Source of the DNA: an uncultured beta proteobacterium
GTDB lineage: Bacteria > Pseudomonadota > Gammaproteobacteria > Burkholderiales > SG8-39
Direction: 5' to 3'
Length of the DNA: 64,000 nt
Assembly (NCBI GenBank): GCA_903859155.1
Contig: CAIOLO010000080.1
Span: forward strand, 64,210-128,209
Below the pieces are notes generated by a model. The model saw only the letters and a program-made list of their open reading frames with translations. It did not search any database and was not told the origin of the DNA. Positions 14,031-60,326 of the stretch are shown piece by piece. Position numbers and translations under genes: made by a program. The first letter of the stretch is position 1. Each line of letters opens with the position of its first letter.

Positions 14031-15218
14031 CTAGGCGGCGTGCCTGTGCGATTCGCGGCCTTCCAGGACGCTGGCCAGGTCGAGCAGGCTCTGCATATTG
14101 TGCGCGGGCAGAAATTTGTCCACATGCGGCAACATCGCGCGTATGCCCGCCGGGCGCGCCTCGAAGCCCTCGTAGCGAAGCAGGGGGTTGAGCCAGATCA
14201 GCTGGCGGCACGAGCGGTGCAGGCGGTCCATTTCCTCGGCCAGGCCCTGGCCGACGTCGGCATCCAGGCCGTCGGTGATCAGCAGCACCACCGCGTTCTG
14301 GCCGAGCACGCGCCGCGACCAGTGCAGATTGAAATCGCGGATCGACGCGCCTATGCGCGTCCCACCCGACCAGTCGGCGACCAGGTCGGCGACGCCGGTC
14401 ATGGCGATATCGACGTCGCGGTGGCGCAGGCAGCGGGTGACGTTGGTAAGCCGGGTGCCGAACACAAAGGTGTGCACGCGGTCGCGGTCGTTGGTGATGG
14501 CGTGCAGAAAATGCAGGAATACCCGGGAATAGCGGTTCATGCTGCCGGAGATGTCGCACATGACCACCAGCGGCGGATGCTGCCAGCGCGGCGAGCGGTA
14601 TTTGATGTCGATGAGCGCGCCGCCCTCGCGCAACGAGGCGCGCATGGTCGCGCGCATGTCGATGCGCCGCCCGTGCGGGTCGCCGTGAAAGCGCCGCGTG
14701 CGGATGTCGCGGATCGGCAGGCGCATGCGCTTGATCAACGCCTTCGCCTGCGACAATTCTTCCGCCGTCATGGTTTCGAAATCGGCGTGCTGCAGCACTT
14801 CGCGAGAGGAGAAGGTGAGGGTGGCGTCGAGTTCGACCTTTTCCTCCTCCTGCTCCTCCTTCTTCTGCGCCTGCGGCTGCTCAGGGTTGAAGGCTTCGCT
14901 GACGCGGCTGTTGGCTTTCTTCTCGTCCTCGGGCGCCGTGGCGAAATCGTCTGGCATCAGCATCGCCATGGCGCGCTCGAGCAACTGCGGATCGCGCCAG
15001 AAAATGTGGAAGGCCTGATCGAATACCTCGAAATGCTCGCGTTTGGCGAGAAATACCGAGGCGAGCGTCCAGTAGAAATCCTCGCGCCGCTCGATGCCCA
15101 CCACCTCGAGCGCGCGCAGGGCGTCGATCACCCGGTCGGGTCCGATGGGCAGGCCGGCGGATCGCAAAACGCGTGCGAAATGCATGACGTTTTCGGCAAG
15201 ATGCCCGGTGTTATTCAA
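14031..15218 (-). CDS. coxE: VWA-domain protein, CoxE type
   Basis: 395 aa. MIDAS-type DISGSM motif and a C-terminal VWA domain (VVLLITDGLD). Acidic EEQEEEK linker. Cox-accessory context. Confidence 0.85.
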   Translation of the reverse strand: MNNTGHLAENVMHFARVLRSAGLPIGPDRVIDALRALEVVGIERREDFYWTLASVFLAKREHFEVFDQAFHIFWRDPQLLERAMAMLMPDDFATAPEDEKKANSRVSEAFNPEQPQAQKKEEQEEEKVELDATLTFSSREVLQHADFETMTAEELSQAKALIKRMRLPIRDIRTRRFHGDPHGRRIDMRATMRASLREGGALIDIKYRSPRWQHPPLVVMCDISGSMNRYSRVFLHFLHAITNDRDRVHTFVFGTRLTNVTRCLRHRDVDIAMTGVADLVADWSGGTRIGASIRDFNLHWSRRVLGQNAVVLLITDGLDADVGQGLAEEMDRLHRSCRQLIWLNPLLRYEGFEARPAGIRAMLPHVDKFLPAHNMQSLLDLASVLEGRESHRHAA

Positions 15219-29911: not shown

Positions 29912-30001
29912 ATGCTTACCGATACCAAGACACGCCAATGCAAGGCCGAGGGCAAGCCTTTTGTGCTGTCCGACAGTGGCGGGCTTTGGGGTAACAATTG
30001 A
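29912..30001 (+). pseudogene. N-terminal fragment of a P4-type tyrosine integrase (truncated after 29 codons)
   Basis: AGGAGG + ATG opens MLTDTKTRQCKAEGKPFVLSDSGGLWGNN*. This matches the conserved integrase N-terminus (MLTDTKxRxAKxxxKPYKLSDGGGLYL) and then terminates. No catalytic domain follows. Confidence 0.55.
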
Positions 30002-30149
30002 GCGTGGGAGAACCGTAGCGTCCGCATCGACTGGCATCCTGTTTTGTCCGATACATTTCCCCGGTGCGATAAAAAACGTCACCGTAAGGTATCGCAACAC
30101 CAATAGAAACATTCCAGTTTTCATGTTCACCTCCATCCCGCAGCGAGCG

Positions 30150-31523
30150 TTACTGTCGGCATTCAATCTGAAAGGTGAACTGACGGGCTAGATCGCTCAC
30201 ATCGCCAATGCGCAGCTCTTTGGCGGAAGAACGCTCCTCTACTCGCTGCCCCCCCGCTTCAAGGAAAAGCCGGGCCATTGCACCCTGTACGGCAAAGTTA
30301 ACATTCTGTGGGATGTCACCTGTGGATTGCGCTATTCGCATAGCATCAAGTTTGCTGACGACCACGCCAACAAGGTTTCCTCCCATGTCAAGGAGTGGTC
30401 CACCGCTGTTGCCAGGCTGAACTGGTGCCGTGACCTGCAGAAATGCCGTATTTCCGCCCAATCCGGCAAGGGCACTGACATTGCCTAAGGTTACATTCAG
30501 TCCGTTTTGCAACACATCAGGGAGCGGAAATCCAGCCACCATCACACCTTCGCCAGCCTTAATGCCCGGTGCCGAACGAAATCGCACAAATGGGACCGAG
30601 CCTGTAACTTGAACGCGGATCATCGCTAAATCATTGCGCTCGTCACGGCGTACCAACTGTGCGGGATGAGTCCGTCCATCCAGAAGGGCCACAATGGATT
30701 TGCAAGTTTGCGTGACGTGGTTGTTTGTCAACGCGTGTCCCTGAGTGGATACAAAAAAACCGGTGCCAAATGACTGTCCACCTGCGGGCGGTGCGGCGGA
30801 TGGGGACCTTGGTGCTTGTGGGGCCGTTACGACGGGCGAGGTACGGAGGGTCGATCCGTTGAAAACTATATCAGTCAACGTGCAGAGATTTTGTCCACGC
30901 CGTTCTTCGAACCGACGATCTTTGTAACCCACTCGAACGTCGAACTGGCACTGACCATCTTTGGGCATCCGGATTGTCATCCGGTTTCCCGGGTCTACTA
31001 CGACCCCAGCACCCAGTTTATCCTCGCCCCAACTAGTCGCCTCTATCGGGCTGACATAGACAAATAAAATGGACTCTGATGAATTATTGACCAGATCAAA
31101 ATCAGCATTAGATGCGTCCGCTGTCGGAGTACTGATGCCACACGCAATTCTGAATCTAATTTGTCCGACTGAATTGGGTACCACCGCATTCCATGATCCA
31201 CTTGCGTTCGCTGAACCAACCACAGTCCCGGTCCCCATTTGTCCTGAGTTTTCAACATAGGCAGTTATTCGGAATCTAATTTCGGAACAATCGTATTCAA
31301 ATTGAGTTTGCTCTGAAAAATAATTTATGCGTCGATCATTTGTTTTCGCGACACTGTAGTCTGTTAATGACCACATTTTCGCAAATGTGCCTGTGCGGCG
31401 AATTGTTGTCGGATCATGGTATCCAACAGAAGTATCTGTACTAGTGCTTCGTACCCACTCAGCTAATGCATTTTCAGCACATAGCACGAGAACAGCTATC
31501 AGGATGAATAGCAATCGTTTCAT
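30150..31523 (-). CDS. secreted trypsin-like (S1) serine protease with two extra N-terminal domains
   Basis: 457 aa. Signal peptide MKRLLFILIAVLVLCAENALA. C-terminal protease domain with His (LTNNHV), Asp (NDLAMI) and Ser (GNSGGPL). Pro-rich linker (APQAPRSPSAAPPAGG). No PDZ domain seen. Confidence 0.85.
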   Translation of the reverse strand: MKRLLFILIAVLVLCAENALAEWVRSTSTDTSVGYHDPTTIRRTGTFAKMWSLTDYSVAKTNDRRINYFSEQTQFEYDCSEIRFRITAYVENSGQMGTGTVVGSANASGSWNAVVPNSVGQIRFRIACGISTPTADASNADFDLVNNSSESILFVYVSPIEATSWGEDKLGAGVVVDPGNRMTIRMPKDGQCQFDVRVGYKDRRFEERRGQNLCTLTDIVFNGSTLRTSPVVTAPQAPRSPSAAPPAGGQSFGTGFFVSTQGHALTNNHVTQTCKSIVALLDGRTHPAQLVRRDERNDLAMIRVQVTGSVPFVRFRSAPGIKAGEGVMVAGFPLPDVLQNGLNVTLGNVSALAGLGGNTAFLQVTAPVQPGNSGGPLLDMGGNLVGVVVSKLDAMRIAQSTGDIPQNVNFAVQGAMARLFLEAGGQRVEERSSAKELRIGDVSDLARQFTFQIECRQ

Positions 31524-31526
31524 AGA

Positions 31527-31745
31527 TCAGCAAGTTCTTTTATAAGCGCGTTTAGTCGCACCCCTGAAGTTCTGCGCCTGATACTCTCGCACTAGCGTCT
31601 GCGCTTCGGTCATTTGTAGAGGTGTCATTTATATTGCAGCAATGTCGCGGTTCTCCACCGCATCGGCATCACCTTTCGCGGCTGCAAGGTTGAACCACAT
31701 GTGGGCGCGGGCGTCATCCACAGGGACACCTTGCCCCAAGCTATC
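31527..31745 (-). pseudogene. remnant of a Sel1-repeat (SLR) protein with an in-frame stop
   Basis: The minus-strand frame reads ...LGQGVPVDDARAHMWFNLAAAKGDADAVENRDIAAI*MTPLQMTEAQTLVREYQAQNF..., i.e. one terminal Sel1 repeat plus the usual tail. It is interrupted by TAA at 31629-31631. No upstream repeats remain. Confidence 0.4.
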
Positions 31746-31840
31746 TAGCTCAGTTTCCGCCCACACCCTACCCCCTGCTTGACCTAGATCAATTTTCTGC
31801 CCATTGGAGGTATATGCTGGCCGGATACTGGGTGGTAACT

Positions 31841-32182
31841 ATGCGCTTTGTCCCTGCCTTACTGCTGTCGCTGGCGCTATGCCTGCCGATCACTGCCCAT
31901 GCCAAGGGTGGACACGGTGGGTCAAGCCATGCCCACGCAACCAACTCCAGCACTTCCGCATCCGCCCCCGAGACCCCCACGGCAGAATCCAACATAAGCG
32001 CTGCGGCTCGGTCAAGCTTCCAGGACTCTAACCCCCGCCCTGCAACCGACGAGACTTCTGGCGCTTGTCCCGGCTACGTTGCCGATCATATCCAACCACT
32101 GAAGGGTGGTGACGATGATAGTTCGAGCAATATGCACTGGCAGATCAGGGAAGCAGCGAAGATCAAAAATCGGACTGAGTAG
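31841..32182 (+). CDS. small secreted HNH-nuclease-like protein
   Basis: Start set at 31841 (signal peptide MRFVPALLLSLALCLPITAHA). Low-complexity KGGHGGSSHAHATNSSTSAS region. C-terminal CPGYVADHIQPLKGGDDDSSSNMHWQ resembles the short periplasmic HNH family (CPGYvvDHivPL..GG.D...NMQWQ). Confidence 0.6.
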   Translation: MRFVPALLLSLALCLPITAHAKGGHGGSSHAHATNSSTSASAPETPTAESNISAAARSSFQDSNPRPATDETSGACPGYVADHIQPLKGGDDDSSSNMHWQIREAAKIKNRTE

Positions 32183-32237
32183 ATTGTGAAGTTTTCCCGG
32201 ATTTATTATTTTGTCGGTTAGCCCTTGGAGGAATTTT

Positions 32238-32810
32238 ATGAAGATTGCATTCGTGGCATTCATTGCTGCTATTTTATTGTCGAGTTGTGGCTCAATCCCG
32301 CCATTGAACTTTTCGGTTCCCAATGTTGGCGTGTCAAATAAAAAAATTGACGCTGAAATGAAGTCAATGACCATAACGATTGCTCGCCCAGATGAAAAAA
32401 CAGGAGCCCTCCCGGCGGGCATGGAGAATAACGTCCCCCAACTGTGGCAAACAGCTTTGACTGAGTCACTAAACAGAATGGTGATTTTTAGAGATGATGC
32501 AGCCATGAAGGTGAATCTGTCGGTAAAAATCCTCAAGCTTGAGGTGCCGGGTGGCGGCTTTTCAATGACTACGAATGCGGCTGCGCGGTATGAACTAATT
32601 GATCGAAACACCGGGGGTATTATTTTTGCTCAGGATATTTCGTCATCGGGCACCACTCCTGCCGACTTTGCCTTTGCCGGAATAGCCCGTATTCGCGAGT
32701 CAATTAATCGCGCCGTCCAAAACAACATCACGCAATTTCTGCAAGCCTTGGAAACGGTTGATGTTAAAAAGCCAATGTTCCCTGCTAAGGGTAAGGGAGC
32801 TAACGAATGA
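32238..32810 (+). CDS. lipoprotein of unknown function
   Basis: GGAGGA + ATG at 32238. MKIAFVAFIAAILLSSC lipobox. Its stop overlaps the start of the next gene (ATGA at 32807-32810). Confidence 0.7.
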   Translation: MKIAFVAFIAAILLSSCGSIPPLNFSVPNVGVSNKKIDAEMKSMTITIARPDEKTGALPAGMENNVPQLWQTALTESLNRMVIFRDDAAMKVNLSVKILKLEVPGGGFSMTTNAAARYELIDRNTGGIIFAQDISSSGTTPADFAFAGIARIRESINRAVQNNITQFLQALETVDVKKPMFPAKGKGANE

Positions 32811-33271
32811 GATTACAGCAGGTTGTTTGTGCCACCATCGTCGTTCTTGCCGGATGTGCGTCCAACATTTCGCCGCAGACCTACTCTGTTGGCGCTGTTG
32901 GACAAGTCAATCGCACTGTAGCTGCCACTGTGGTGAGTGTTAGGGAAGTCGATGTGTCTGGCACCAACCGCGTGGGCGGCAGTGCCGGAACAGCAGCAGG
33001 TGCCGTTGTTGGGTCGTCCGCCGGTGGGAACAACTCAAGGGGCAATATCGTCGGGGCAATCGGAGGCGCGGTTGTTGGTGGCCTTGCAGGAGCCGCAATC
33101 GAAGCGAATGCTACGAAGCAGAAAGGCATGGAATATGTCGTCGAAACCGAGAACGGTAATCTCATGACGATTGTCCAGGGTGCAGACACATTATTCACCG
33201 TCGGGCAAAAAGTTTTCGTGCTTTATGGCTCTCCTTCGAGGCTTATTGCGGACCCTCGGACGAAGCAATGA
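32807..33271 (+). CDS. glycine-zipper outer-membrane lipoprotein (SlyB/Pcp-like)
   Basis: 154 aa. VVLAGC lipobox. Gly/Ala zipper GSAGTAAGAVVGSSAGG...GAIGGAVVGGLAGAAI. SlyB-like C-terminal segment. Confidence 0.8.
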   Translation: MRLQQVVCATIVVLAGCASNISPQTYSVGAVGQVNRTVAATVVSVREVDVSGTNRVGGSAGTAAGAVVGSSAGGNNSRGNIVGAIGGAVVGGLAGAAIEANATKQKGMEYVVETENGNLMTIVQGADTLFTVGQKVFVLYGSPSRLIADPRTKQ

Positions 33272-33373
33272 AAAAGAGCGCGGATCCCAGTAGCCTATAT
33301 CAACATTCAAGGTTCCGTCACGATCTGGAAATACGGCTTTTCTTGTCGTGAAGAAAATATAGCCTGAATATGA

Positions 33374-33952
33374 TTAGCGTTTGTCCAACTGCTTCAATAG
33401 CCGATACTTGCACCATGCGGCAAGTGTAAATGTGTCCTGCACCTCGGAGCGTTCAATCATTCCTTCGAACTCCTGAAAATCGAAAAAGCGAAATTCCCCA
33501 AGGCCTAACTCGCAATCCTCTCGCTTTGTAAGACGCCCACCTTCGGCCACATATAGATGAACTCTTGCCGCCAACACTCCAGAATCGGGAGTGATAAATC
33601 CCAGTGAACGAGAGCGTTTCGGATCGACAACCAACCCGGTTTCCTCCAGCAGTTCTCTCAATGCAGCGGTTTGTTCATCCTCTCCTTCGTCTACAAAACC
33701 GTGTGGTATTTCCAGAGAAAATCCACGCAAGGCAGGACGGTAAATTTTTATCAACCCGACTTGTTCATCGACAATAGGCAAGATAGCCACCCCGGTCACG
33801 AGGTTTTTTCCTGCATGTTTTGGAGCAACCACCAGATAGTCAGGCACTTCGTCACCAGCCATGTCGGACACATGGTCGAAATAGACAAAGAACTTTGAGT
33901 TCTCGCATGCCAGGCGCCTGGAGATCACCTCAATCGGTGGGTCTTTATCCAT
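33374..33952 (-). CDS. NUDIX hydrolase (ADP-ribose pyrophosphatase-like)
   Basis: 192 aa. Nudix box GFVDEGEDEQTAALRELLEETGL. AAGGGA SD upstream. Confidence 0.85.
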   Translation of the reverse strand: MDKDPPIEVISRRLACENSKFFVYFDHVSDMAGDEVPDYLVVAPKHAGKNLVTGVAILPIVDEQVGLIKIYRPALRGFSLEIPHGFVDEGEDEQTAALRELLEETGLVVDPKRSRSLGFITPDSGVLAARVHLYVAEGGRLTKREDCELGLGEFRFFDFQEFEGMIERSEVQDTFTLAAWCKYRLLKQLDKR

Positions 33953-34016
33953 ATTCCCTTTTGCTCAGAGGATTGAACGACAGCCGTAGTCTAAGAGCTC
34001 GCTGCAGTGATCGCGC

Positions 34017-35453
34017 CTAGAACGGGTAGATGCTGACCGCCACACCTGATGCATCTGAACTCACGCGGATGAGAGGTTGGGATGCGTCTGCCGAGGTCAA
34101 TTCTTTTTCGCCTGAGCCGGTTCTTGAATAGCGCAGCTTCCAGGTGCCTGCGGGATACTTGAAATGGTGCTGGCTTCCCCAGGCGAGGTCGACGTTCTCT
34201 TGCGTGGTGCCAGAATCCTTCACTTCCCGCCAAATCGTTGATGAAATTTTCCAGTTCGTCAATCCACCCGGTGCGGCAGTCTGGCTTGCTGGTGCGTCCG
34301 CAGCGTGAAACGTGCCGGCACTCCAGCAGGCCGCTTGCTCGGTTTCTGACACAAGTCTTATTATCCATCCCCCCATATTCTGTGATCCGGCTTGGCCCGC
34401 GCTTGGCACAAACGCGCTGGTACCCGGCTTGATTCTCCAACCATCTGCCAGTTCTTGTGGCGTCACTACGAGGCATTGCCGGTTTGTCGCTTCAGTACTA
34501 CCCGCATCCAGTAGGAATTCCCGTGAAATCTGGATTTTCTCTTCCGTTTTTACCGTGGTGATGGCGTGCTCCATGCTCATGCGACCAAACGAACCCGGCA
34601 GAATGGCGAGTTCGACCTCCAATTGCTCGATTGCTGGAGTGGAGAAAAAATTCGAAGAAGGGACCCAGGGAATGCCAATAACCCCTGTTTTCCAGATTAT
34701 TTGTCCCGGGTCCGCCGCGTCCAAATCGGTGGTGGGTACATTGAACCCAAGGCGGTCCGACCCGTACTCGAAAGCCTTGTAGGATTTGCCGTCAATCGAC
34801 AACTGCGGAACAGCCCCACCAGTATAGGAACTGGGGAGGTTTCCACGCACGGTGATGGACTGAAACGGCATAGAGGAAAACAGGAAAATCGGACCGCTGG
34901 CATTCAGCAGGGGGGCGGCGCTCGGGGGGCGGAGTCGGTATGCGATTGCTTGGGCGCGCTCACCCGCGTCCTTCACGGTCATGTCCACAGGCGAGTAAAG
35001 ATTCGATATCAGAGGTTCCAGTTCGGACTTGAGTTTATTCTCCTGCTCGCCAAGAGCAGAAGTGCTCAGGGACAGGCTGTCCTTGAATGTCGCCCGGCCC
35101 CGCGCCAGTGCATTCTGTGCGCGCACGCCGGCCACAACCAGTACTTCACGCTGGGCCTGTTTGGCTCGTTGCACCAAAACCCGGACTTCGGCCTGGCTAG
35201 TCGCGAGGAACGCGCCCAAGGTTCCTGGCTCCTGTGCTGCGTCCTCGCTGCCCTGATCGCGCTTGAGCGTCTTGTAGAGTCCGGGCGCGGCCAGCACCGT
35301 CACGGCCCCCGCCCCGGCACCGACGGCCAAGGTAGCGGCACCGGTATGCGCGGCCACTGCGGCGGCGGCAGTGTGAGCGGCGGGAATCATGGCCGCACAT
35401 CCGCTGAGTGCAAGGACACCAGAACCTATGAAACCGGCAAGAATGTATTGCAT
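34017..35453 (-). CDS. large lipoprotein/membrane-anchored protein of unknown function
   Basis: 478 aa. VLALSGC lipobox followed by an Ala/Gly-rich hydrophobic stretch, a predicted helical region, then a long beta-rich C-terminal part. I recognise no family motif. Confidence 0.7.
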   Translation of the reverse strand: MQYILAGFIGSGVLALSGCAAMIPAAHTAAAAVAAHTGAATLAVGAGAGAVTVLAAPGLYKTLKRDQGSEDAAQEPGTLGAFLATSQAEVRVLVQRAKQAQREVLVVAGVRAQNALARGRATFKDSLSLSTSALGEQENKLKSELEPLISNLYSPVDMTVKDAGERAQAIAYRLRPPSAAPLLNASGPIFLFSSMPFQSITVRGNLPSSYTGGAVPQLSIDGKSYKAFEYGSDRLGFNVPTTDLDAADPGQIIWKTGVIGIPWVPSSNFFSTPAIEQLEVELAILPGSFGRMSMEHAITTVKTEEKIQISREFLLDAGSTEATNRQCLVVTPQELADGWRIKPGTSAFVPSAGQAGSQNMGGWIIRLVSETEQAACWSAGTFHAADAPASQTAAPGGLTNWKISSTIWREVKDSGTTQENVDLAWGSQHHFKYPAGTWKLRYSRTGSGEKELTSADASQPLIRVSSDASGVAVSIYPF

Positions 35454-35974
35454 GGGCCTACCTTTTGCAGAGACTGTTTGCCCTTATAAACCGGCAATGA
35501 CCAGGGCATCCGCCACCGCTGGCCCGCCACCCGGGGCAGCGCGGCAGTTTAGCGATAACACGGCGCACAATTGGAGACTTATGCACACCCCCTTGGAAAT
35601 CCACTGCTGGCGCTGGTTTTCACAGGTCCCGTAGAGAAAACGGCCTAACTGGTTATATTTTAATAAGAAAAAATATTGGCTGCAAAACACTCAACTCAAA
35701 AAATCCCTTATGCGTAAGGTATTTACATTATATCGCCGACGATACTCACACACTTATGCACAGAAATTGTTGGCAACTCAAAATCCCATGCGAATTGAGG
35801 TTGTTATGGCTGCAATTTGAATTGCTTATGAGGAGTTTTCGGGGCGCACAAATATTGTTCGGCGTCAACAAAAACCGTGCGCGAACAAATCACTCACCGG
35901 CGTCACGTGCGGGCACGCCACGCTGACAGTCTGGATGTCCGGTTATGACCTCAGCGGCCATTCATTCGGATAAA

Positions 35975-37531
35975 TCAAACCTTGAATTTCCTGACCATAC
36001 TGGAGAGCTGCACCATTTGACCGTTCAGATCGCTGGCGGCGCCAAGGGATTCGGCAGCACTTGCGGCGTTCTTCTGCGTGACCAGATTGATCTGGGAAAC
36101 TGAATCGTTGATTCGCTCAATGCTTCCCGCCTGCGCCATTGTCGCGCTGGATATGTCGTTGGCAAGACGACTGATCGCATTCGCACCTTCGGCTGCTGCG
36201 GCAAGATTCTTGTCTATCTCCCTGGACAGATCGACCCCGTTTCTCGATTGCGCGACGGCGCTCTTTATCAGCATTTCGCTGCGGCGCGCCGCATCGGTCG
36301 AACGCGCCGCCAGGCCGTTGATCTCATCGGTGAGTATGCTGAAATCCGCTCCGGCCCCGCCGACGTGCGCCGCCTCTATCGCCGCGTTTATGCCGAGGAG
36401 ATTGGAGAAGATCGCCAATTCGTTCATGTTGTCGATGAGTTTCAGAATCTCCTTGAGAAACGGGTCATCCCTGTTCATGGCCATTTTCTTTTCCAGGGCC
36501 TTCATGTTCCTGGCAGTCTCGGTGCAGCGAGTGGACAGTTTTCGAATTTCTTCTGCCACTACTCCAAATCCTCCGGCAGAGGTCCTCACGCGTACCGCTT
36601 TTTCGCTGGCGCTGGTGGACAGTTTGCCGGTCTCTTTCGCAATGGAATCGATTTCAGTGACAATGGTGGCGGTGTTTTCCGCAGAGGCGCTGATCTCCGA
36701 CATCGCCGCTACCATTTGCCCCATCGACTGTTTGGCCGTCGTCACCGCCGCGGCCGCCCGCTTGGCATTCTGCTGCGCTTCATCGGTGTTTTTTGCACTG
36801 CTTCTGGCGCTGTCAGCCAGTTTTTCGATATTGCCAGCAGCGTCTTCGAGTCGGCGCTTTTGCTCGTCCGCGCCTTCGGCAACGGTAGAACTGGATTGCA
36901 TCACGCTCCGGCCCACGCCTGTGGCCAGTTCGACGGTATTGGTAACCTGGGAGATTGCGCCGTGCAGCGTATCCGCAGTCGCATTCATGGCATCCCTTAT
37001 GACCGCGTGCTCGCCACGATATCTGCCGTGCATCCGCGCATTCAGGTCATAGGTTGCGAGTCTGCCCAAAACGTCGCTCGCCTCATGCATGGGATCTACC
37101 ACTGCATCCAGGGTCTTGTTCATTCCGGATATCAACTCTTTCCAGATGCCTTCGTAATCCCAATCGTTGCCCCTGGTGCGCAGCCTGCCTTCCCTGACGT
37201 TGTCCGTGAGGTTCAAGGTCTCACGATGCATGCCGTAGAGAACCGCCAACAGCGTATTGATACTCTGCTTGATACGGTCATATTCGCCTTTTTGTTCATC
37301 TATGACGAAAGGCGGGATGCGTCCGTGAGCGATCTCGTCCAGCGCGCTGGCGGCAAGCCGCATCGGCGAGACAAGGTTGTCCAGCATCCGATTGACCAGG
37401 CCGACCAGTTCGGCATCCTGCCCCGAGAACCTGGAGGCATCTCCGCGGACATCCAGCTTGCCCTCAATCATCGCCTCTGCCACGGTGTTGACGACGTCAA
37501 AGACGGTTGCTTGTTTGGGTTTTGGCGTCAT
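35975..37531 (-). CDS. soluble methyl-accepting chemotaxis-type signalling protein (HAMP-like repeats plus an MCP signalling domain with a duplicated hairpin tip)
   Basis: 518 aa with no hydrophobic segments. Three HAMP-like units (GKLDVRGD...LVNRMLDNL; GRLRTRGN...GMNKTLDAV; YDLNARMH...). The C-terminal arm (IERINDSVSQINLVTQKNAASAAES) and tip motifs (GGFGVVAEEIRKLS; NLLGINAAIEAAHVG) are typical of MCP signalling domains. Starts 6 nt after the protease stop. Confidence 0.85.
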   Translation of the reverse strand: MTPKPKQATVFDVVNTVAEAMIEGKLDVRGDASRFSGQDAELVGLVNRMLDNLVSPMRLAASALDEIAHGRIPPFVIDEQKGEYDRIKQSINTLLAVLYGMHRETLNLTDNVREGRLRTRGNDWDYEGIWKELISGMNKTLDAVVDPMHEASDVLGRLATYDLNARMHGRYRGEHAVIRDAMNATADTLHGAISQVTNTVELATGVGRSVMQSSSTVAEGADEQKRRLEDAAGNIEKLADSARSSAKNTDEAQQNAKRAAAAVTTAKQSMGQMVAAMSEISASAENTATIVTEIDSIAKETGKLSTSASEKAVRVRTSAGGFGVVAEEIRKLSTRCTETARNMKALEKKMAMNRDDPFLKEILKLIDNMNELAIFSNLLGINAAIEAAHVGGAGADFSILTDEINGLAARSTDAARRSEMLIKSAVAQSRNGVDLSREIDKNLAAAAEGANAISRLANDISSATMAQAGSIERINDSVSQINLVTQKNAASAAESLGAASDLNGQMVQLSSMVRKFKV

Positions 37532-37537
37532 GGTGGG

Positions 37538-38020
37538 CTACGCAGAGTGGATGGATGGGTTCGAGCCGATTCGCAACAAGGACATCACTTTCTCGACTGC
37601 CGGCTCGGTGGCCTCTGTCACCTCTTTGCTCATGTGCGCGCGCGGCAGGTCGAAACAACGCCCTTCCACGCCCACAAGGGAGATCTGCTTGGGCATGCGT
37701 TCCGGATACAGCGCCGCGCCGATTTCCATCGTCTCCCGCAGTCCGATCCCATGTGCGGATATGGCGTTGGCCCGGCTTCGGGGGATGTCATCCATTCCCA
37801 GGCAGTGCACTGTTCCTACAGCGGCGCCCAGGCACATCGCATCGACAACGATCATGGCGTCTTCCGTTCCATCGAGCAGATCCAGCAAGGCGATTCCACC
37901 GACGCTGCAGTATTCCAGCCTGACCCCGGGCGGCAACCTTCGTGCCAGGCTGGCGTGGACCTCGAAGCCGATTGCATCATCGGCCACTAATTCGTTCCCG
38001 ATGCACACGACAAGAGGCAT
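37538..38020 (-). CDS. [NiFe]-hydrogenase maturation endopeptidase (HycI/HoxW/FrhD family)
   Basis: 160 aa. VCIGNELVADDAIG and AHGIGL motifs typical of hydrogenase C-terminal processing proteases. Its ATG abuts the stop of the upstream gene (TAGATG). Confidence 0.85.
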   Translation of the reverse strand: MPLVVCIGNELVADDAIGFEVHASLARRLPPGVRLEYCSVGGIALLDLLDGTEDAMIVVDAMCLGAAVGTVHCLGMDDIPRSRANAISAHGIGLRETMEIGAALYPERMPKQISLVGVEGRCFDLPRAHMSKEVTEATEPAVEKVMSLLRIGSNPSIHSA

Positions 38021-38482
38021 CTATTGCGTCGCAATCTTTATCTGGCAGGATTTCCCAACCCTGGCGATTTCTGACTTTACCGGCCGCCGCATCAACTCAT
38101 TGACGATGCCGTCAAAATACGCGTGGTACAGCTTGCATGTCGCTCCGCCGGTTTGCTTGCCCGAACTGGTGCAAAGGTCGCGAATGAAGCAGGTACCTAC
38201 CGTGGTATCGGCCCCGTTCTCGATGACGGAGGTGACCGAAATGTCGAACCCGGCCTTCATGCGTTCGGACAAGACTGCAATCGTCTCGGCCAGAGAAGGC
38301 TCTCCCAGATGCAGGGGCAGCTTTTTTGCCATGTCCCGCCCGGCCACCCTGCCCACCGGGCCGGTGGCTCCACCCATGACGTTGTCGATGGTGCTGGCGA
38401 ATGCGTCGACCAGAAAAGCCACCTCCATCATGGCGTGATCGTGGTCCTCGGCTGTCAGATCACCTGCGGGCGCAACTTTCAC
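38021..38482 (-). CDS. V4R-domain protein (second copy in the operon)
   Basis: Start assigned to the GTG at 38482 (GGGGAG 6-7 nt upstream), overlapping the ferredoxin stop as GTGA. An alternative ATG lies at 38431. C-terminal GTCFIRDLC...GGATCKLYHAYFDGIVNEL...GKSCQIKI fits the cysteine-containing V4R (4-vinyl reductase) pattern. Confidence 0.7.
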   Translation of the reverse strand: MKVAPAGDLTAEDHDHAMMEVAFLVDAFASTIDNVMGGATGPVGRVAGRDMAKKLPLHLGEPSLAETIAVLSERMKAGFDISVTSVIENGADTTVGTCFIRDLCTSSGKQTGGATCKLYHAYFDGIVNELMRRPVKSEIARVGKSCQIKIATQ

Positions 38483-38736
38483 AGAAATCTCCCCACCCGA
38501 TTGCAGAACTCGCTGTCGCGGTAAAAGTTCTTTACTTCGTGGTGCCCGGAATGTTTGATGGCATGAGACGGGCAGATATAGCCGCACGACAGGCAGGCAA
38601 TGCAATCCTCGGCATGTTCAACTTTGCACAGCCGGGCATCCTGATCGAATCGGAACACCTTGGTTGGGCAGATATCCACGCACAATTCGCAGCCGCGGCA
38701 GGCCCTCTCGTGGATCTCGATAACGACCGGATTCAT
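38479..38736 (-). CDS. 2x[4Fe-4S] ferredoxin
   Basis: 85 aa. CRGCELCVDICP and CIACLSCGYICP cluster motifs. Its ATG overlaps the large-subunit stop (ATGA). Confidence 0.85.
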   Translation of the reverse strand: MNPVVIEIHERACRGCELCVDICPTKVFRFDQDARLCKVEHAEDCIACLSCGYICPSHAIKHSGHHEVKNFYRDSEFCNRVGRFL

Positions 38737-40184
38737 CCGGCCCTCCTGATCGAGCGCAGCAACTGTCCGGAGCGCCGGATTGTGATTTCCATCGGCATCT
38801 CACCCAATGCATGAGTGGCGCAGGACAGGCAGGGATCGTAGCAGCGGATGCTGAACTCGACGGCATTGAGCAGGGCGTCGTCGCTTGATTTGCCGACGAC
38901 ATGCGACACGGCGGCCTGCTCGATCGAACGGTTGATGAGTGCATAGTTCTGCTGTGTTGCGACGATCAGATTGGCAGCCCTGACTATGCCCTGATCATCG
39001 ATCTCATAGTCGTGAATCAAAGTTCCCCGCGGCGCCTCGACATGCCCGACGCCGCGTCCGCCTGCATACTTCACCGGTACCCGCGTCTGGCCGAAAACCG
39101 CCTTGTCCCGCATGATTTCGGCGCCGCGCTCCAGTGCCCAGATGGTTTCCATTAATTTGGCGTATGCCTGAAATACCGTTACATGGCACGGTGTACCGGC
39201 TACCGACTTAAAGGTTTCATATTCGCGATCGGCCCATTCGGTTCCGTATTGCCCGGCGACATTTATGCGCGCAAGCGGTCCGACGCGATAGTCGTGCAGT
39301 GCCGCGTCGGCATCGAGACTCTCGCGGATGCGGACCGGCTTCATATACGACCAGTCCAGCACCGATTCCGACATGTATTTGTCGTAATCCCCGGTAGGGA
39401 ACTTGAGGCGGTGCTTGCCACTCTGGTCAATGACCGCAATGCTGCCCTCGATCATCGACAGCTTGCCGTTCTTGAGCGTGCCGGCACCCCAGGTTGGAAC
39501 AACCCATTCGGTGAGCATCGAGGGGTGCTTTTCGGCGGTAGCCATCAACAGTTGTTTGATTACCGGAGCAAGGTCCCCCATCAAAACCAGCCCCTCGGAA
39601 ATCCACTTGGTCAACTGCGCCGCATGGGCTTCATCGAGCACAAAAGTGATACCTCCTGCAACGGAAGTGACCGGATGCGTACCTCGGCCTCCGACGAGTT
39701 CGTTGATCTTCTGGCCTATCGATCTGATCCGCAGTGCTTTTTTGGCGACCTCCGGGTTGGCTTTGACAATTCCGACAATATTTCGGATTGCGGGATCGGC
39801 ATCCAGCCCGAGCACCAGATCCGGCCCCTGCAGTACGAACAGCGACAGGCTGTGAGAATGAATCAGGTGCCCCATGTACATCAGCTCCCGCAGCAGCATC
39901 GCAGCCGGCGGAGCCTGGACGCCGGCCGCCGAATCCAGCGCATTGGAGGCGGCGAGGTGATGGGCGGTAGGACATACGCCGCAAATACGGGCGGTAATGT
40001 GCGGCATGCGGTCGGCTTCCATGCCGACCAGTATTTTTTCAAATCCGCGGAGCTCGTTGACGATCAGGCCGGCCGACTTCAGCACACCGTCATCGTCAAG
40101 GTCGATGAACACCTTGGCGTGACCTTCAATCCGGGTTACCGGATCGATCTTGATGGTTCTGGTTGTTGCGCTATTGGGTGTCAT
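38733..40184 (-). CDS. [NiFe]-hydrogenase large subunit, cytoplasmic group-3-like
   Basis: 483 aa. N-terminal RIEGH. L1 motif RICGVCPTAHH. L2 motif DPCLSCATH followed by a 25-aa C-terminal extension (ALGEMPMEITIRRSGQLLRSIRRAG). Confidence 0.9.
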   Translation of the reverse strand: MTPNSATTRTIKIDPVTRIEGHAKVFIDLDDDGVLKSAGLIVNELRGFEKILVGMEADRMPHITARICGVCPTAHHLAASNALDSAAGVQAPPAAMLLRELMYMGHLIHSHSLSLFVLQGPDLVLGLDADPAIRNIVGIVKANPEVAKKALRIRSIGQKINELVGGRGTHPVTSVAGGITFVLDEAHAAQLTKWISEGLVLMGDLAPVIKQLLMATAEKHPSMLTEWVVPTWGAGTLKNGKLSMIEGSIAVIDQSGKHRLKFPTGDYDKYMSESVLDWSYMKPVRIRESLDADAALHDYRVGPLARINVAGQYGTEWADREYETFKSVAGTPCHVTVFQAYAKLMETIWALERGAEIMRDKAVFGQTRVPVKYAGGRGVGHVEAPRGTLIHDYEIDDQGIVRAANLIVATQQNYALINRSIEQAAVSHVVGKSSDDALLNAVEFSIRCYDPCLSCATHALGEMPMEITIRRSGQLLRSIRRAG

Positions 40185-41130
40185 ATTTTGCGCCCTGATA
40201 ATCCTGGTCCGCCTCTGCGATCCATCTCCTTATGAGAAACGTAGGCTTCTCGCCTATCATTTGCGTTGCCATGGTGTAGGAATAGTGGGACTTGGAGGTG
40301 CGTTCGATCTCCTTGACAATGGCGTCACGGGGAATTTTCGTCAGTTTGGACATGCGCTCTGCGATCTCGGTCCTGATATCGCGGTTCGGCTCGGTCAGCA
40401 CCTGCATGGTTGCGCCGGCACATCCGGTGCACGGAATCCCGTTTTGTGGACAGGGGGACAGGCACCTGTCGATAGTCGCCGATCCCATGCACAGATACCC
40501 CTGGCTGAGGAAACATTGGTCGGCATTGGCGATGCCGTCCGAATTTGAGCGGATGGCGTCCACATCCGTTTTTCGCATCTGGCGGGTGCAATGGCCGCAG
40601 ACAGACTCCTGCGTTGCCTTTGGCGTTCTCCCCTCCACCAGGGCCAGCAATGCATCAAACACGAAAGCCGGATGCGGCGGACATCCTGGAAGATAGAGAT
40701 CCACATCGATCGCCTTGTCGAGCGGGGAAACCGTCGATTCCAGCGGCGACACTTCGCAGCTGGGCGGCTGGGCTGAGACCGTCGTCTTGTTGTTGAGGTA
40801 GACCGCGTCCGCGATCTCTTCCCGGGTATGCACGTTGCCGGCACCTGCAGGGCCGCCGAACACGGCGCAGGAACCCCAGGCGATAACCAGATCGCAGCTT
40901 TTTCTCATCTCCATGGCTGCGTGCCTGTCATGCTCGTTCCTGATTGCGCCGGATACGAGACCGACCGTCGCATGCGGATAGTCCTTGATATCGGTCAGCA
41001 CCGGGCAGCGCTGTATGGTCACCGAATCCAGGACCGCCAGTATCTTCTCGTGCAGATCGACGATGGCAATATGGCAACCGGAGCAATCGCTCAACCATTC
41101 CGTGTTCACAGTTACGGGCACGGCGCTCAC
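40171..41130 (-). CDS. [NiFe]-hydrogenase small subunit, three-cluster type, no Tat signal
   Basis: 319 aa with a GTG start (GGGAGG upstream). Proximal-cluster cysteines DCSGC...GSCAVFGG...LPGCPP. Medial and distal cysteines CGHC...CFLSQGYLCMG...CLSPCPQNGIPCTGC as in FrhG/MvhG-like subunits. About 70-aa hydrophilic C-terminal tail. Confidence 0.85.
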   Translation of the reverse strand: MSAVPVTVNTEWLSDCSGCHIAIVDLHEKILAVLDSVTIQRCPVLTDIKDYPHATVGLVSGAIRNEHDRHAAMEMRKSCDLVIAWGSCAVFGGPAGAGNVHTREEIADAVYLNNKTTVSAQPPSCEVSPLESTVSPLDKAIDVDLYLPGCPPHPAFVFDALLALVEGRTPKATQESVCGHCTRQMRKTDVDAIRSNSDGIANADQCFLSQGYLCMGSATIDRCLSPCPQNGIPCTGCAGATMQVLTEPNRDIRTEIAERMSKLTKIPRDAIVKEIERTSKSHYSYTMATQMIGEKPTFLIRRWIAEADQDYQGAKYDTQ

Positions 41131-41663
41131 GCAGCCTCCCGGTTCCTGACGATGAGGCGCTTGTAGCAGGCGTTTTCCCCGCTGTGCATGATCTCCAGAG
41201 TCGATTCACGGCCCATGACGTTCTGCAGCGCGCCGGCAAAAAAGCCGAACATCATGTTGCACAGCGAGCCTTTCTGGGCGTGTCCAAAGCGGAAAAGGGA
41301 CTGCCGTATCATGCAGTCACGGAACACCAGCATCACCTCGCTGCCGCCGTCCACCTTCTGCACCAGATCGGGACGATCATGCGGCTTGAATGTTTCGAAC
41401 ATCCAGAGATAATTGTTTTCCAGCAATACGTTGCGTGTCGCGGCCAGTGCCTCTTCAATGTCATCGGTTTTATCGACGCCGTCGGAGAGCTTTTTCCCAA
41501 GGTTCTTGCCGGCAAGATAGGAAATGCTGTTGGCGGATTCGCCTACCGCCTGTTCCATGCCGCTGGAAATGGCGCCAAGAAAAATCATCGCCTGCTGCAG
41601 TTTTGCCCGCCGGTCGGCGAGGGGCGTTGTCGGCGCCGTGGACCGGGAATCCTCATGTGCCAA
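41127..41663 (-). CDS. V4R-domain protein (first gene of the operon)
   Basis: 178-aa ORF with a TTG start (start uncertain; in-frame ATG at 41588). VFRDCMIRQSLFRFGHAQKGSLCNMMFGFFAGAL...GENACYKRLIV fits the V4R pattern. Its stop overlaps the small-subunit GTG (GTGA). Confidence 0.7.
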   Translation of the reverse strand: MAHEDSRSTAPTTPLADRRAKLQQAMIFLGAISSGMEQAVGESANSISYLAGKNLGKKLSDGVDKTDDIEEALAATRNVLLENNYLWMFETFKPHDRPDLVQKVDGGSEVMLVFRDCMIRQSLFRFGHAQKGSLCNMMFGFFAGALQNVMGRESTLEIMHSGENACYKRLIVRNREAA

Positions 41664-42121
41664 GATTCGTCGCCTTCTCTGTGGGGTGCGCCTGTACTAG
41701 TAGATTCTTTAACCTTGAGACTGAAACGCAGGCCAAAGATAATGTGCCCAAATTTGCCGTCTTTATAAGTCGCGAGTAAGGGGGGTATTTCAGTGCTATT
41801 CGCCGCTTTGTTTCGTGGCGGGCGGGAACCAGACTGGCCTGGCGCCAGTAACACCATGCGGAACCGCCTCAAACCGGGATTTGAACAGAGGCGCTTTTGC
41901 TGCGCCATAAGGTAATACGGGGAAAAGGTTCAGCGACAGGCCCGGCGGGAAGTAATATCGCCCAATGTGATACAAGATCCTTACGATGCTCTGGCGCGGG
42001 TGCAAACAATGGGGCGATTGCACAATCGGAAAGGCATTTTGACGGCATCCTTGATGGCATCGGAACGCATGGCGTCTTTTGTCATCAATTAAGATCGGGT
42101 TTGATTGCACAGAATGACGTT

Positions 42122-57977: not shown

Positions 57978-60326
57978 ATGGTGGAAAAAGGCATAGGCGC
58001 GCACATACCGCGCCGCGAGGATTTCAGGCTGCTGACCGGCGCCGGCAAATACGCCGATGACATGCGCGCCGATGGGCAGGTGTACGGCTATGCGCTGCGC
58101 GCTTATCACGCGCATGCCCGGTTGAGGAGCATCGACGTCACCGAGGCGAAGAAGGCGCCCGGCGTTCTCGCCGTGCTCACCGGCGCCGATTACGCCGCCG
58201 ACGGTCTGAAGGGCATTCCGCACGGCGCCATGACGGTCAAGCCCGAAGACCACACGGTCCCGTGCTTTGGCCAGGCCGATGGCAAGCCGGCGTTTTCCGC
58301 GCCCAATATTCCGATCGTGTGCGACAAGATCCACCACATCGGCGAGATCGTTGCGTTCGTGATCGCCGACACGCTGCAGCGGGCGCGCGATGCGGGCGAG
58401 CTGATCGAGGTCGATTACGAGGTGCTGCCCGCGGTGACGCGCGGCATGGAGGCCATGAAACCGGGCGCGCCGGTGGTGTGGGACGAGCAACCGGGCAACA
58501 TTGCGTTCGACGGCCTGCATGGCGACCACGCCGGGGCGGAACAGGCGTTCCGCAATGCGGCGCACGTGGTCGAGGAGGAGTTTCCCTTCAATCGTGTCGC
58601 CAATGCGCAGATGGAACCGCGCGCCTGCCTGGCCGAATACACCGCCGAGGGGCGTTTCATCCTGCACGCCGGTTCGCAGGGCGTGCATCGCCTCAAAACC
58701 AACGCGTCAGTGGTGTTCTCCTGCGACCCGTCGATGATCCGGGTGCTGACGCGCGACACCGGCGGGGGCTTCGGGCCGCGCTCGCACCTGTATCCCGAAT
58801 ATGTCCTGGCGATGTGGGCGGCGCGCAAACTCGGCCGCCCGGTCAAATGGAACAGCGATCGCTCCGAGGCTTTCCTTTCGGACTACCAGGCGCGCGATGT
58901 CACCATCAAGGGATCGCTGGCGCTGGACGCGAACGGTAAATTTCTTGCGCTCAAGGAGACCATCTATTCCAATGTCGGCGGCAACTGCGTCTCGTATGTG
59001 CCGGCGGCGAATGGTTCGCGCATTGCCACCACTGTCTACAAAACGCCCTTCCTCGGCATGCACGCCATCGGCATCCTCAGCAACACCCTGCCTTCGGTGA
59101 ATTACCGCGGCGCCGGGCGGCCCCAGGCGATGCTGGTCATGGAGCGCCTGATCGACCTGGCCGCCGACAAACTCGGCATGGACCGCATCGAGCTGCGCCG
59201 CCGCAACCTGATCGCGATCGCGGACTTTCCGTTCAAGCAGGCGGGGGGGCTTACCTACGATTGCGGCGAGTTCGAAAAGAACATGGATCGCTGCATGGAA
59301 TTCATCGACTGGAAGGGCTACCCGGCGCGGCGCGAGGAAGTGATAAAGCGCGGCATGCTCTCGGGCATAGGCCTGGCCAATTACATCGAAACGCCGGTGG
59401 GCGCGCCGATTGAGCGCTCGAACATTCTGGTGCGCACCGATGCCGACAAGGTCGATGTCATCGTCGGCACGCAATCGGGCGGACAGGGGCACGAGACCAG
59501 CTTTGCGCAGGTGATCGAATCTTGGCTCGGCGTGCCCATGGACGATGTCAATCTCATCACCGGCGATTCCGACATCGTGATCGAGGGCGGTGGTACGCAC
59601 TCCGACCGTTCGATACGCATGGCAGGCTATGTAATGGTGAAGGCATCCGAGCAGATCATAGAAAAGGGCAAGAAGATCGCCGCCCACCTGCTGGAAGTAG
59701 CCGCCACCGACATCCAGTTCGGCAAGGGTCAATTTACCGTGGGCGGCACCGATCGTTCGGTGTCCCTGTTCGAGGCCGCGCGTGCCGCTGCCACTGACAA
59801 GGTGCCCGAGGAGTTGCGCGGGCCGCTTGCGGGCGACGCAAAATTCGTCGGACGCATTCCCGCCTATCCGAATGGCTGCGCGGCCGCGGAAGTCGAGATC
59901 GACCCCGACACCGGCGTGGTGGAAATCAAACGCTATGTCTGCATCGACGATGTCGGCCGGGTGGTGAATCCGATGATCGTCGACGGCCAGACGCACGGGG
60001 GCATCGTGCAGGGCGTGGGACAGGTGCTCACCGAGAGTGTCATACACGACGCCGATGGACAGATACTCACCGGCTCCTTCATGGACTACGGCATGCCGCG
60101 CGCCGACATGTTCCCGGAGTTCAAGGTGGAGAACAACGAGGTCATCACCAAGGGCAATCCCCTGGGTGTCAAAGGCGGCGGCGAAGCCGGCACCACCGGC
60201 GCGCTGGCAGTGATGATGAACGCCATCCTCGATGCGCTCAAGCCGCTGGGCATCACGCGATTCGACATGCCCGCGACGCCCGGCCGGGTGTGGCAGGCGA
60301 TACAAGCGCGCAAAACACTGAACTGA
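57978..60326 (+). CDS. molybdopterin-binding large subunit of a xanthine dehydrogenase/CO dehydrogenase-family enzyme (form-II CoxL-like)
   Basis: 782 aa. N-terminal RREDFRLLTG a/b-hammerhead. The active-site loop reads VNYRGAGR, closer to the form-II AYRGAGR type than the form-I AYxCSFR type. C-terminal GGGEAGTTGA motif. Confidence 0.9.
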   Translation: MVEKGIGAHIPRREDFRLLTGAGKYADDMRADGQVYGYALRAYHAHARLRSIDVTEAKKAPGVLAVLTGADYAADGLKGIPHGAMTVKPEDHTVPCFGQADGKPAFSAPNIPIVCDKIHHIGEIVAFVIADTLQRARDAGELIEVDYEVLPAVTRGMEAMKPGAPVVWDEQPGNIAFDGLHGDHAGAEQAFRNAAHVVEEEFPFNRVANAQMEPRACLAEYTAEGRFILHAGSQGVHRLKTNASVVFSCDPSMIRVLTRDTGGGFGPRSHLYPEYVLAMWAARKLGRPVKWNSDRSEAFLSDYQARDVTIKGSLALDANGKFLALKETIYSNVGGNCVSYVPAANGSRIATTVYKTPFLGMHAIGILSNTLPSVNYRGAGRPQAMLVMERLIDLAADKLGMDRIELRRRNLIAIADFPFKQAGGLTYDCGEFEKNMDRCMEFIDWKGYPARREEVIKRGMLSGIGLANYIETPVGAPIERSNILVRTDADKVDVIVGTQSGGQGHETSFAQVIESWLGVPMDDVNLITGDSDIVIEGGGTHSDRSIRMAGYVMVKASEQIIEKGKKIAAHLLEVAATDIQFGKGQFTVGGTDRSVSLFEAARAAATDKVPEELRGPLAGDAKFVGRIPAYPNGCAAAEVEIDPDTGVVEIKRYVCIDDVGRVVNPMIVDGQTHGGIVQGVGQVLTESVIHDADGQILTGSFMDYGMPRADMFPEFKVENNEVITKGNPLGVKGGGEAGTTGALAVMMNAILDALKPLGITRFDMPATPGRVWQAIQARKTLN

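Follow-up and report, generated by a model that had tools for sequence, protein, structure and literature searches.

A V4R-associated group-3 [NiFe]-hydrogenase operon that ends in a soluble chemoreceptor gene: a candidate module for H2 or redox taxis

Analysis of a 64-kb stretch of DNA from an uncultured beta proteobacterium (contig CAIOLO010000080.1; the whole analysed stretch is hereafter called the window) revealed an operon at 35975-41663 in which a cytoplasmic [NiFe]-hydrogenase is encoded together with a methyl-accepting chemotaxis protein (MCP), that is, a soluble chemoreceptor-type transducer. Seven consecutive minus-strand open reading frames (ORFs), tightly packed and all intact, encode in order a small protein termed X1, the hydrogenase small subunit (S), the large subunit (L), a ferredoxin (Fd), a second small protein termed X2, a maturation protease and the MCP, with X1 and X2 sharing a predicted V4R-type fold. 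The seven-gene order recurs in approximately 60 independent loci, mainly in Geobacterales but also in a few betaproteobacterial metagenome-assembled genomes (MAGs), and this linkage is strong evidence for a functional connection of the MCP with the hydrogenase. On the strength of the gene linkage, we see an even chance that the MCP receives its input from the hydrogenase complex, with H2 or redox taxis as the result. The fuller proposal, that this is the first [NiFe]-hydrogenase-based chemoreceptor, that it uses a V4R-fold redox-to-conformation switch to drive taxis to H2 or to ferredoxin poise, and that its six-gene core represents a new V4R subgroup, is put forward more tentatively.

In anoxic sediments, subsurface aquifers and syntrophic consortia, H2 serves as a central currency. 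The characterised H2 sensors act on transcription via histidine kinases, and a connection of hydrogenases to chemotaxis has been proposed solely for [FeFe] group C2; to our knowledge, the means by which bacteria find H2 are largely unknown. If the proposal is true, the unit would be a concrete and genetically tractable candidate for H2 or redox taxis, with T. lovleyi, Geomonas species and Geobacter sp. OR-1 as its cultured carriers, and taxis guided by H2 or ferredoxin poise would extend to Geobacterales and to those Betaproteobacteria that acquired the unit. Apart from sensing, the operon presents an undescribed group-3 architecture, with a putatively bound ferredoxin and a pair of cysteine-bearing V4R-fold subunits, which raises the question of the role of V4R proteins in electron transfer.

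The MCP and its linkage to the hydrogenase genes

Profile searches of the MCP identified two HAMP copies at residues ~34-97 and 126-189 (HAMP_2; E 4e-33, 113.6 bits against a cut-off of 24.3) and a chemoreceptor signalling domain (MCPsignal; E 2e-29, 102.8 bits against a cut-off of 34.6), and the HAMP region also matched the Aer2 model of NCBIfam. Neither a recognisable sensor domain nor a membrane anchor was found in the protein by Pfam searches, a fragment scan and a search for hydrophobic segments. In a conservation profile of 53 distinct sequences (the window's MCP and 52 orthologues), the mean column identity reached 0.69-0.82 in the HAMP region and 0.84 at the signalling tip, with 0.56-0.67 in the helices between them. 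This conservation of the HAMP region fits the presence of a constrained input surface in that part of the MCP sequence.

The signalling domain itself is unusual in that the MCPsignal profile matched it twice, residues 256-352 corresponding to profile positions 3-99 and residues 344-485 to positions 26-172. The first copy keeps the 'GFGVVAEEIRKLS' half of the consensus and the second keeps the 'SNLLGINAAIEAA' half, so that the hairpin tip seems to be duplicated at the profile level; BLAST between the two halves of the domain detected no pairwise similarity. A '40+24H' MCP class has been mentioned for Geobacteraceae (PMC3543383), to which this double domain may be related, and the double match is of possible interest for chemoreceptor structural biology.

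An identical large subunit accompanied by the same seven genes was found on metagenome contigs from several samples, and Trichlorobacter lovleyi SZ and Geobacter sp. OR-1 carry the seven genes in the same order, with a large subunit of ~70% identity; in OR-1, hypBFCDE and hypA border the cluster. A scan of one genome per species yielded 44 loci, and tblastn with the seven window proteins revealed the full X1-S-L-Fd-X2-protease-MCP order in every sufficiently long locus among them, except two loci of a Desulfobulbales type that are devoid of the MCP. Scanning metagenomes with the X1 alignment added 80 further loci, where the six-gene core was present in all those long enough to show it and the MCP in only part. 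The original prediction had made its case depend on conservation of this neighbourhood in other genomes, and the survey bears it out well beyond this strain. We give next to no weight to a chance or strain-specific juxtaposition, or to a set of decaying remnants, as the explanation of the cluster: the same order in ~60 loci, the seven intact ORFs with their conserved catalytic and cluster residues, and the identical or near-identical copies on metagenome contigs from several samples all speak against it. Both chance juxtaposition and a pseudogene cluster were ruled out by the synteny survey.

In a neighbour-joining tree with midpoint rooting, built from 88 distinct large subunits, the presence of the MCP follows the phylogeny of the hydrogenase. 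Counting loci long enough to tell, one clade, which includes T. lovleyi, OR-1 and Geomonas, has the MCP in 63 loci and is missing it in none, and the other side of the tree holds 18 loci without the MCP and none with it. Within the MCP clade, the protease and MCP genes are separated by 20 nt or less, or overlap, in 43 of 53 loci, a translational coupling that thus holds in most of them, and the identity of the MCP to its window counterpart tracks that of the large subunit (Spearman 0.67), as do the identities of X1 (0.66) and X2 (0.64). In two loci (L101 and L102), the MCP gene has the protease gene on one side and hypA on the other; hypA and hypB directly follow the protease gene in the MCP-less locus L089, where hypE and hypD lie on the opposite strand. 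Taken together, the sequence evidence assigns X1, X2 and the ferredoxin to an undescribed group-3 hydrogenase of older origin; the MCP is an addition of later date that has been strictly retained.

The window copy falls within the MCP clade of Geobacterales, alongside L128, a near-identical metagenome contig, and three loci from betaproteobacterial MAGs (L008-L010). The cluster has a GC content of 0.58 and a GC content at third codon positions (GC3) of 0.68-0.73, compared with 0.62-0.63 and 0.76-0.86, respectively, for host genes, and in L010, from another betaproteobacterial MAG, the seven genes have unrelated surroundings (dihaem cytochromes, pgk and earP). In light of this nesting, the lower GC content and the unrelated context in L010, the whole seven-gene unit, MCP included, was probably acquired horizontally as one block.

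Among the cultured carriers, the T. lovleyi unit (L005; CP001089, 1638375-1655814) lies within a signalling-rich region, with two large dCache-PAS hybrid histidine kinases upstream and, downstream, a response-regulator-SpoIIE phosphatase with HATPase_c_2, a 99-residue ORF and another two-component pair. The sister MCP-less form appears to constitute a separate, undescribed group-3 hydrogenase with associated V4R proteins. Its main loci, from genomes and metagenome contigs of the Desulfobulbales type (L044 and L052-L086), share a conserved housekeeping synteny, htpG-bamE-pcm ... yaaA. A GGDEF gene near L044 was considered as a conserved signalling partner and rejected, as it is not conserved in the other MCP-less loci.

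The hydrogenase, its ferredoxin and the V4R-fold proteins

The large subunit matched the NiFeSe_Hases family (Pfam, E 1e-30), and the RIEGH, RICGVCPTAHH and DPCLSCATH motifs named in the original prediction were all read directly in its sequence, with the NiFe ligands at C68, C71, C452 and C455. A C-terminal extension of 25 residues follows the final His of DPCLSCATH. The best matches in the PDB were HydL (7t2r, 332 bits), MvhA (5odc, 327 bits) and HoxH (5xf9, 280 bits), whereas group-1 periplasmic and membrane-bound enzymes matched the N-terminus only, at 75-118 bits. The small subunit (Oxidored_q6, Pfam, E 1e-28) aligned with MvhG (5odc_E; E 1e-67, 231 bits), and its four proximal and eight further cysteines align one-to-one, all twelve of them, with those of MvhG in PDB 5odc. 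No twin-arginine motif is present at its N-terminus (MSAVPVTVNTEW), so the earlier description of a subunit with the cysteines of three clusters and without a twin-arginine translocation (Tat) leader stands. The maturation protease matched HycI (Pfam, E 4e-12) and, above its cut-off, TIGR00072 (E 1e-31).

The best NCBIfam models were VhuA for the large subunit (345 bits) and VhuG for the small subunit (228 bits), both far under the equivalog cut-offs of 800 and 450 bits. Based on the scores of HydL, MvhA and HoxH, on the MvhG-like small subunit and on these best models, the enzyme is by sequence a cytoplasmic group-3 [NiFe]-hydrogenase whose nearest subgroup is 3c. By the same measure, it is without the partners that define 3c and lies outside the core of any characterised subgroup. 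Genes for MvhD or HdrABC were found neither in the operon, nor among the 20 other window ORFs, nor in the flanks of L005, L007, L010 and L044. The usual electron-transfer partners, reported missing in the original prediction, were equally missing on annotation: the operon and the 20 other long ORFs of the window hold no gene for a diaphorase, Hdr, an F420-binding subunit or a cytochrome b.

In group 2b sensors, the large subunit lacks a C-terminal extension, a dedicated protease is missing, and the partner is a PAS histidine kinase. The enzyme described here departs from this pattern on each count, with its 25-residue extension, its HycI protease gene and an MCP rather than a kinase as the partner. 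In addition, residues ~250-319 of the small subunit form a tail of ~70 C-terminal residues past the region that aligns with MvhG and VhuG; the small subunit of the MCP-less clade is similar in length (310 residues in L044). In the HoxBC sensor, contact with the kinase is made through a C-terminal tail of the small subunit and, by analogy, the tail seen here may be a candidate docking site.

X1 and X2 were named V4R proteins in the original prediction. Pfam V4R (PF02830) was not matched by either protein at E values up to 10, nor was V4R matched in the NCBIfam search, and searches of X1 and X2 profiles against PDB sequences returned only spurious matches such as designed armadillo repeats. X1 matched no Pfam family, and the sole Pfam signal of X2 was a weak match to ATC_hydrolase. 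Nonetheless, JGI and UniRef give X1 homologues the name 'predicted hydrocarbon binding protein (contains V4R domain)', and remote relatives of X1 score 16-23 bits for V4R in the homologous segment, below the cut-off of 31. The two proteins are paralogous (21% identity, E 5e-7), and their AlphaFold models (predicted local distance difference test, pLDDT, of 74.5 for X1 and 86.5 for X2) were compared with known structures by Foldseek, with matches at E values of ~1e-4 to 1e-3 and template-modelling (TM) scores of 0.5-0.63. The X1 model matched MopR (5kbh, E 8e-4) and, at E 8e-4 and weaker, the PoxR and DmpR sensor domains, Bet3, H-NOX and YslB. The X2 model matched PoxR (5fru, E 1.3e-4) and MopR (5kbh, TM 0.63), as well as DmpR, YslB, the TRAPP subunit Bet3 and H-NOX. 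According to these models, X1 and X2 are members of the V4R / H-NOX / Bet3 fold superfamily, and the term 'V4R' is correct at the fold level only: the predicted folds, the homologue names and the sub-threshold scores of remote relatives uphold it, while the Pfam threshold is failed. The same holds for the profile hidden Markov model check of the seven proteins, in which the hydrogenase, Fer4, HycI, HAMP_2 and MCPsignal families were all recovered and Pfam V4R was not.

Alignments of X1 displayed invariant C117, H128, C135 and C166 and near-invariant E157 and H160, and those of X2 displayed invariant C98, C104, C116, H120 and C146; the conserved cysteines and histidines of both proteins are kept even in the most distant clade sampled, and they are candidate Zn, Fe-S cluster or redox-active thiol sites. 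The X1 family is narrow, as an exhaustive profile search found 82 relatives among 1.84 billion cluster representatives, and in every recovered locus long enough to show its neighbours X1 adjoins this hydrogenase. In one remote relative (P0353, 231 residues), a 2x[4Fe-4S] ferredoxin is naturally fused to an X1-like V4R domain, and three others (P0386, P0403 and P0404; 288-323 residues) are tandem V4R-V4R proteins. The tandem proteins suggest that X1 and X2 act as a pair. The operon's ferredoxin matched Fer4, Fer4_7 and related Pfam families, with cysteines 13, 16, 19 and 23 and 45, 48, 51 and 55. The ferredoxin-V4R fusion indicates that it is probably a partner bound to the V4R proteins, i.e. 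a subunit, rather than a freely diffusing carrier. The original view of the V4R proteins as adaptors is therefore revised: they and the ferredoxin are more than adaptors of the MCP, because the older six-gene unit exists without the MCP and the fusion ties the V4R proteins to the electron path. Two further X1 relatives (P0352 and P0367) carry long, coiled-coil-like N-terminal extensions.

In a further explanation, the whole family is regulatory, MCP-less forms included. In such a scheme, a hydrogenase of slow turnover would determine the redox state of the cysteine or metal sites of X1 and X2, and these two proteins would be the true outputs, with the MCP as their target in one clade and unlinked partners as their targets elsewhere. 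All clades have X1 and X2 as invariant partners of the hydrogenase, and both proteins carry invariant cysteines and histidines; the X1 family is tiny and confined to the side of this hydrogenase wherever neighbours can be seen, and the fold is common to stand-alone H-NOX sensors. A weakness of this scheme lies in the conserved cysteines of X1, which may be structural: the spacing of C135, E157, H160 and C166 resembles that of the structural zinc site of MopR (C155, E178, C181 and C189). Furthermore, no conserved signalling gene stands beside the main, Desulfobulbales-type MCP-less clusters. In favour of the scheme, the V4R-domain cysteines of MsvR serve as a redox switch and confer redox sensitivity (PMC3729527). 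On balance, we regard a wholly regulatory family as quite improbable.

A proposed input pathway and the metabolic alternative

In the arrangement that we favour, the large and small subunits, the bound ferredoxin, X1 and X2 would form a five-subunit soluble group-3 hydrogenase, a complex proposed from the conserved gene set. The NiFe site would split H2, and the three clusters of the small subunit would pass the electrons on to the ferredoxin and from there to the metal or thiol sites that conserved Cys and His residues would form in X1 and X2. By analogy with known V4R sensors, the cysteine-bearing V4R-fold pair would likely act as a redox-to-conformation element. The two-HAMP N-terminal part of the MCP would then read the redox or conformational state of the complex and modulate a CheA-type kinase encoded elsewhere in the genome, which would result in taxis, or in another Che-type response, to the availability of H2 or to the redox poise of ferredoxin/H2. 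We favour the hydrogenase as the input because the MCP carries no sensor of its own, because it is strictly linked to, co-inherited with and tightly coupled to the hydrogenase genes and was probably transferred with them as a block, and because its HAMP region is constrained. The sensor-type fold of X1 and X2, the MsvR precedent and the absence of a nearby metabolic partner point in the same direction.

Several observations weigh against a sensory role of the complex. The C-terminal extension, the dedicated protease, the NiFe ligands and the three Fe-S clusters are as in catalytic enzymes. In the 18 sufficiently long loci of the sister group, the core of six genes, both V4R proteins and the ferredoxin included, stands without an MCP, which implies that the enzyme has a function independent of the MCP, and the Desulfobulbales-type clusters in this group have no conserved signalling neighbour. 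In the MCP, a strict search for [ASTG][ASTG]xx[EQ][EQ]xx[ASTG][ASTG] found no canonical methylation motif, and no che genes occur in the 64-kb window or in the examined flanks (L005, L007 and L010). Lastly, the literature search found no experiment on any member of the family.

Much of this evidence is shared by a metabolic explanation, in which L, S, Fd, X1 and X2 form a bidirectional hydrogenase that exchanges electrons between H2 and either the ferredoxin or some small molecule or cofactor carried by the V4R subunits, and in which the MCP senses something else and is merely co-expressed. Such an enzyme would account for the six-gene core standing alone in the sister group and for the complete set of catalytic features, and the closest solved relatives (HydL of NiFe-HydABCSL, MvhA and HoxH) are themselves metabolic. 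The V4R fold, moreover, accommodates small hydrophobic ligands in the case of MopR and PoxR, and haem in that of H-NOX. What the metabolic explanation leaves unaccounted for is the behaviour of the MCP, which possesses no domain to detect an independent signal, is kept in 63 of 63 loci, moves with the cluster to new phyla and genomic contexts, and lies, in L101 and L102, within the run of hydrogenase and hyp genes. The ferredoxin-V4R fusion likewise points to a bound subunit, not to a diffusible acceptor. On balance, we hold the metabolic explanation, the main rival of the favoured arrangement, to be rather unlikely, and the hydrogenase as input module of the MCP remains the arrangement that we prefer.

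Known systems, operon layout and neighbouring genes

Among the characterised enzymes, the group 3c MvhAGD (Mvh/Vhu) is one of the closest relatives, with all three clusters aligned (MvhA 327 bits, MvhG 231 bits), and it is likewise cytoplasmic and Tat-less, with a C-terminal extension which a protease removes. Unlike MvhAGD, the operon has a small ferredoxin, two V4R-fold proteins and an MCP in place of MvhD/HdrABC. The bifurcating NiFe-HydABCSL (7t2r/7t30) provides, in HydL, the best PDB match of the large subunit (332 bits), but its small subunit is short (179 residues), in contrast to the full three-cluster, MvhG-like subunit of the operon, and its HydABC flavoprotein genes have no counterpart here.

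In the group 2b HoxBC/HupUV systems, a cytoplasmic [NiFe]-hydrogenase is read by a co-encoded histidine kinase, HoxJ/HupT (PMC6978683). The favoured arrangement is alike in concept, as the state of a hydrogenase would be read by a signalling protein encoded alongside it. It differs in the hydrogenase group, in having an MCP output instead of a PAS histidine kinase, in keeping the extension and the protease, and in the two V4R proteins and the ferredoxin that are interposed. The [FeFe] group C2, termed 'chemotactic (putative)', is the only hydrogenase class of HydDB that is linked to methyl-accepting chemotaxis proteins (PMC5037454). Here too H2 sensing would feed into the Che pathway, putatively in both cases, but the two hydrogenases belong to unrelated superfamilies, the MCP is a separate polypeptide in the operon, and V4R proteins are present only in the latter.

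Among the chemoreceptors, CetA/CetB, Aer2 and the H-NOX-linked MCPs resemble the operon's MCP in being transducers with HAMP and signalling domains and, as is proposed for the operon's MCP, are fed by a separate or N-terminal sensor module; CetA/CetB is a split energy-taxis receptor, and Tt H-NOX, whose fold is common to X1 and X2, is the sensor domain of an MCP. Unlike these receptors, the window's MCP has no PAS or haem domain, and its presumed sensor is a multi-subunit hydrogenase. Compared with the V4R sensors MopR, PoxR, DmpR and MsvR, X1 and X2 share the fold and have conserved cysteines in the same region, but they are small stand-alone proteins without a DNA-binding or AAA+ domain, score below the Pfam V4R threshold and form a narrow family seen so far only beside this hydrogenase.

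We found no description of a [NiFe], V4R and MCP cluster in the literature covered, which comprised HydDB, a 2025 survey of [NiFe] neighbourhoods, genome and chemotaxis papers on Geobacter and Pelobacter, a cable-bacteria nickel paper and hydrogenotaxis papers, with subscription journals lying outside this coverage; the earlier statement that no such arrangement is described thus met no match. Sensory hydrogenases and soluble HAMP-only transducers are already known, and what would be new is a V4R-bearing [NiFe] enzyme wired to an MCP.

The coordinates of the seven genes and of the neighbouring features are listed in the table below. The ORF coordinates reproduced the seven packed minus-strand genes together with every junction noted originally: 4-nt overlaps at 41127-41130, 38733-38736 and 38479-38482, a 14-nt overlap at 40171-40184, an abutment at 38020/38021 and a 6-nt gap at 37532-37537. 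The GTG start of X2 is also the choice of other gene callers, which give the same 153-residue product. No 19-residue stretch of membrane-helix-grade hydrophobicity was found in the seven proteins, apart from a buried strand of the protease. No sigma-70-like minus-strand site was found before X1 (41664-41896) or before the MCP gene, a terminator scan of the operon gave nothing convincing, and hyp genes do not occur within the 64-kb window.

Table. Positions of the operon genes and adjoining features in the window
Feature	Position	Strand	Description
X1	41127-41663	-	TTG start; 178 residues; soluble; predicted V4R / H-NOX / Bet3-type fold; first gene of the operon
[NiFe]-hydrogenase small subunit	40171-41130	-	319 residues; Oxidored_q6; proximal, medial and distal Fe-S cluster cysteines; Tat-less
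[NiFe]-hydrogenase large subunit	38733-40184	-	483 residues; group 3; NiFeSe_Hases; L1 RICGVCPTAHH, L2 DPCLSCATH
Ferredoxin	38479-38736	-	85 residues; two CxxCxxCxxxC motifs (2x[4Fe-4S])
X2	38021-38482	-	GTG start; 153 residues; soluble; predicted V4R-fold paralogue of X1
Maturation endopeptidase	37538-38020	-	160 residues; HycI/HybD type
MCP (soluble chemoreceptor-type transducer)	35975-37531	-	518 residues; HAMP_2 x2 and MCPsignal
Intergenic region upstream of X1	41664-41896	.	adjoins a divergent gene; presumed operon promoter, from layout only
Adhesin_E-trypsin-like protease gene	30150-31523		in low-GC stretch
NUDIX gene	33374-33952		in low-GC stretch
478-residue lipoprotein-like ORF	34017-35453		no Pfam match; in low-GC stretch

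The stretch adjoining the operon at 30000-36000 has a still lower GC content (0.53, with GC3 of 0.46-0.63) and, besides the three genes listed, holds a glycine-zipper protein gene. These flanking genes were found beside the cluster only on same-strain contigs and not in other hosts, and the stretch is probably part of the same acquired region or of a neighbouring one. Elsewhere, the window carries a gene for a CoxE-like VWA protein (14031-15218), one for the large subunit of a molybdopterin-binding dehydrogenase of the xanthine/CO dehydrogenase family (57978-60326), and TRAP and TctC-type transporter genes typical of Betaproteobacteria, all of which are ordinary and unrelated to the operon.

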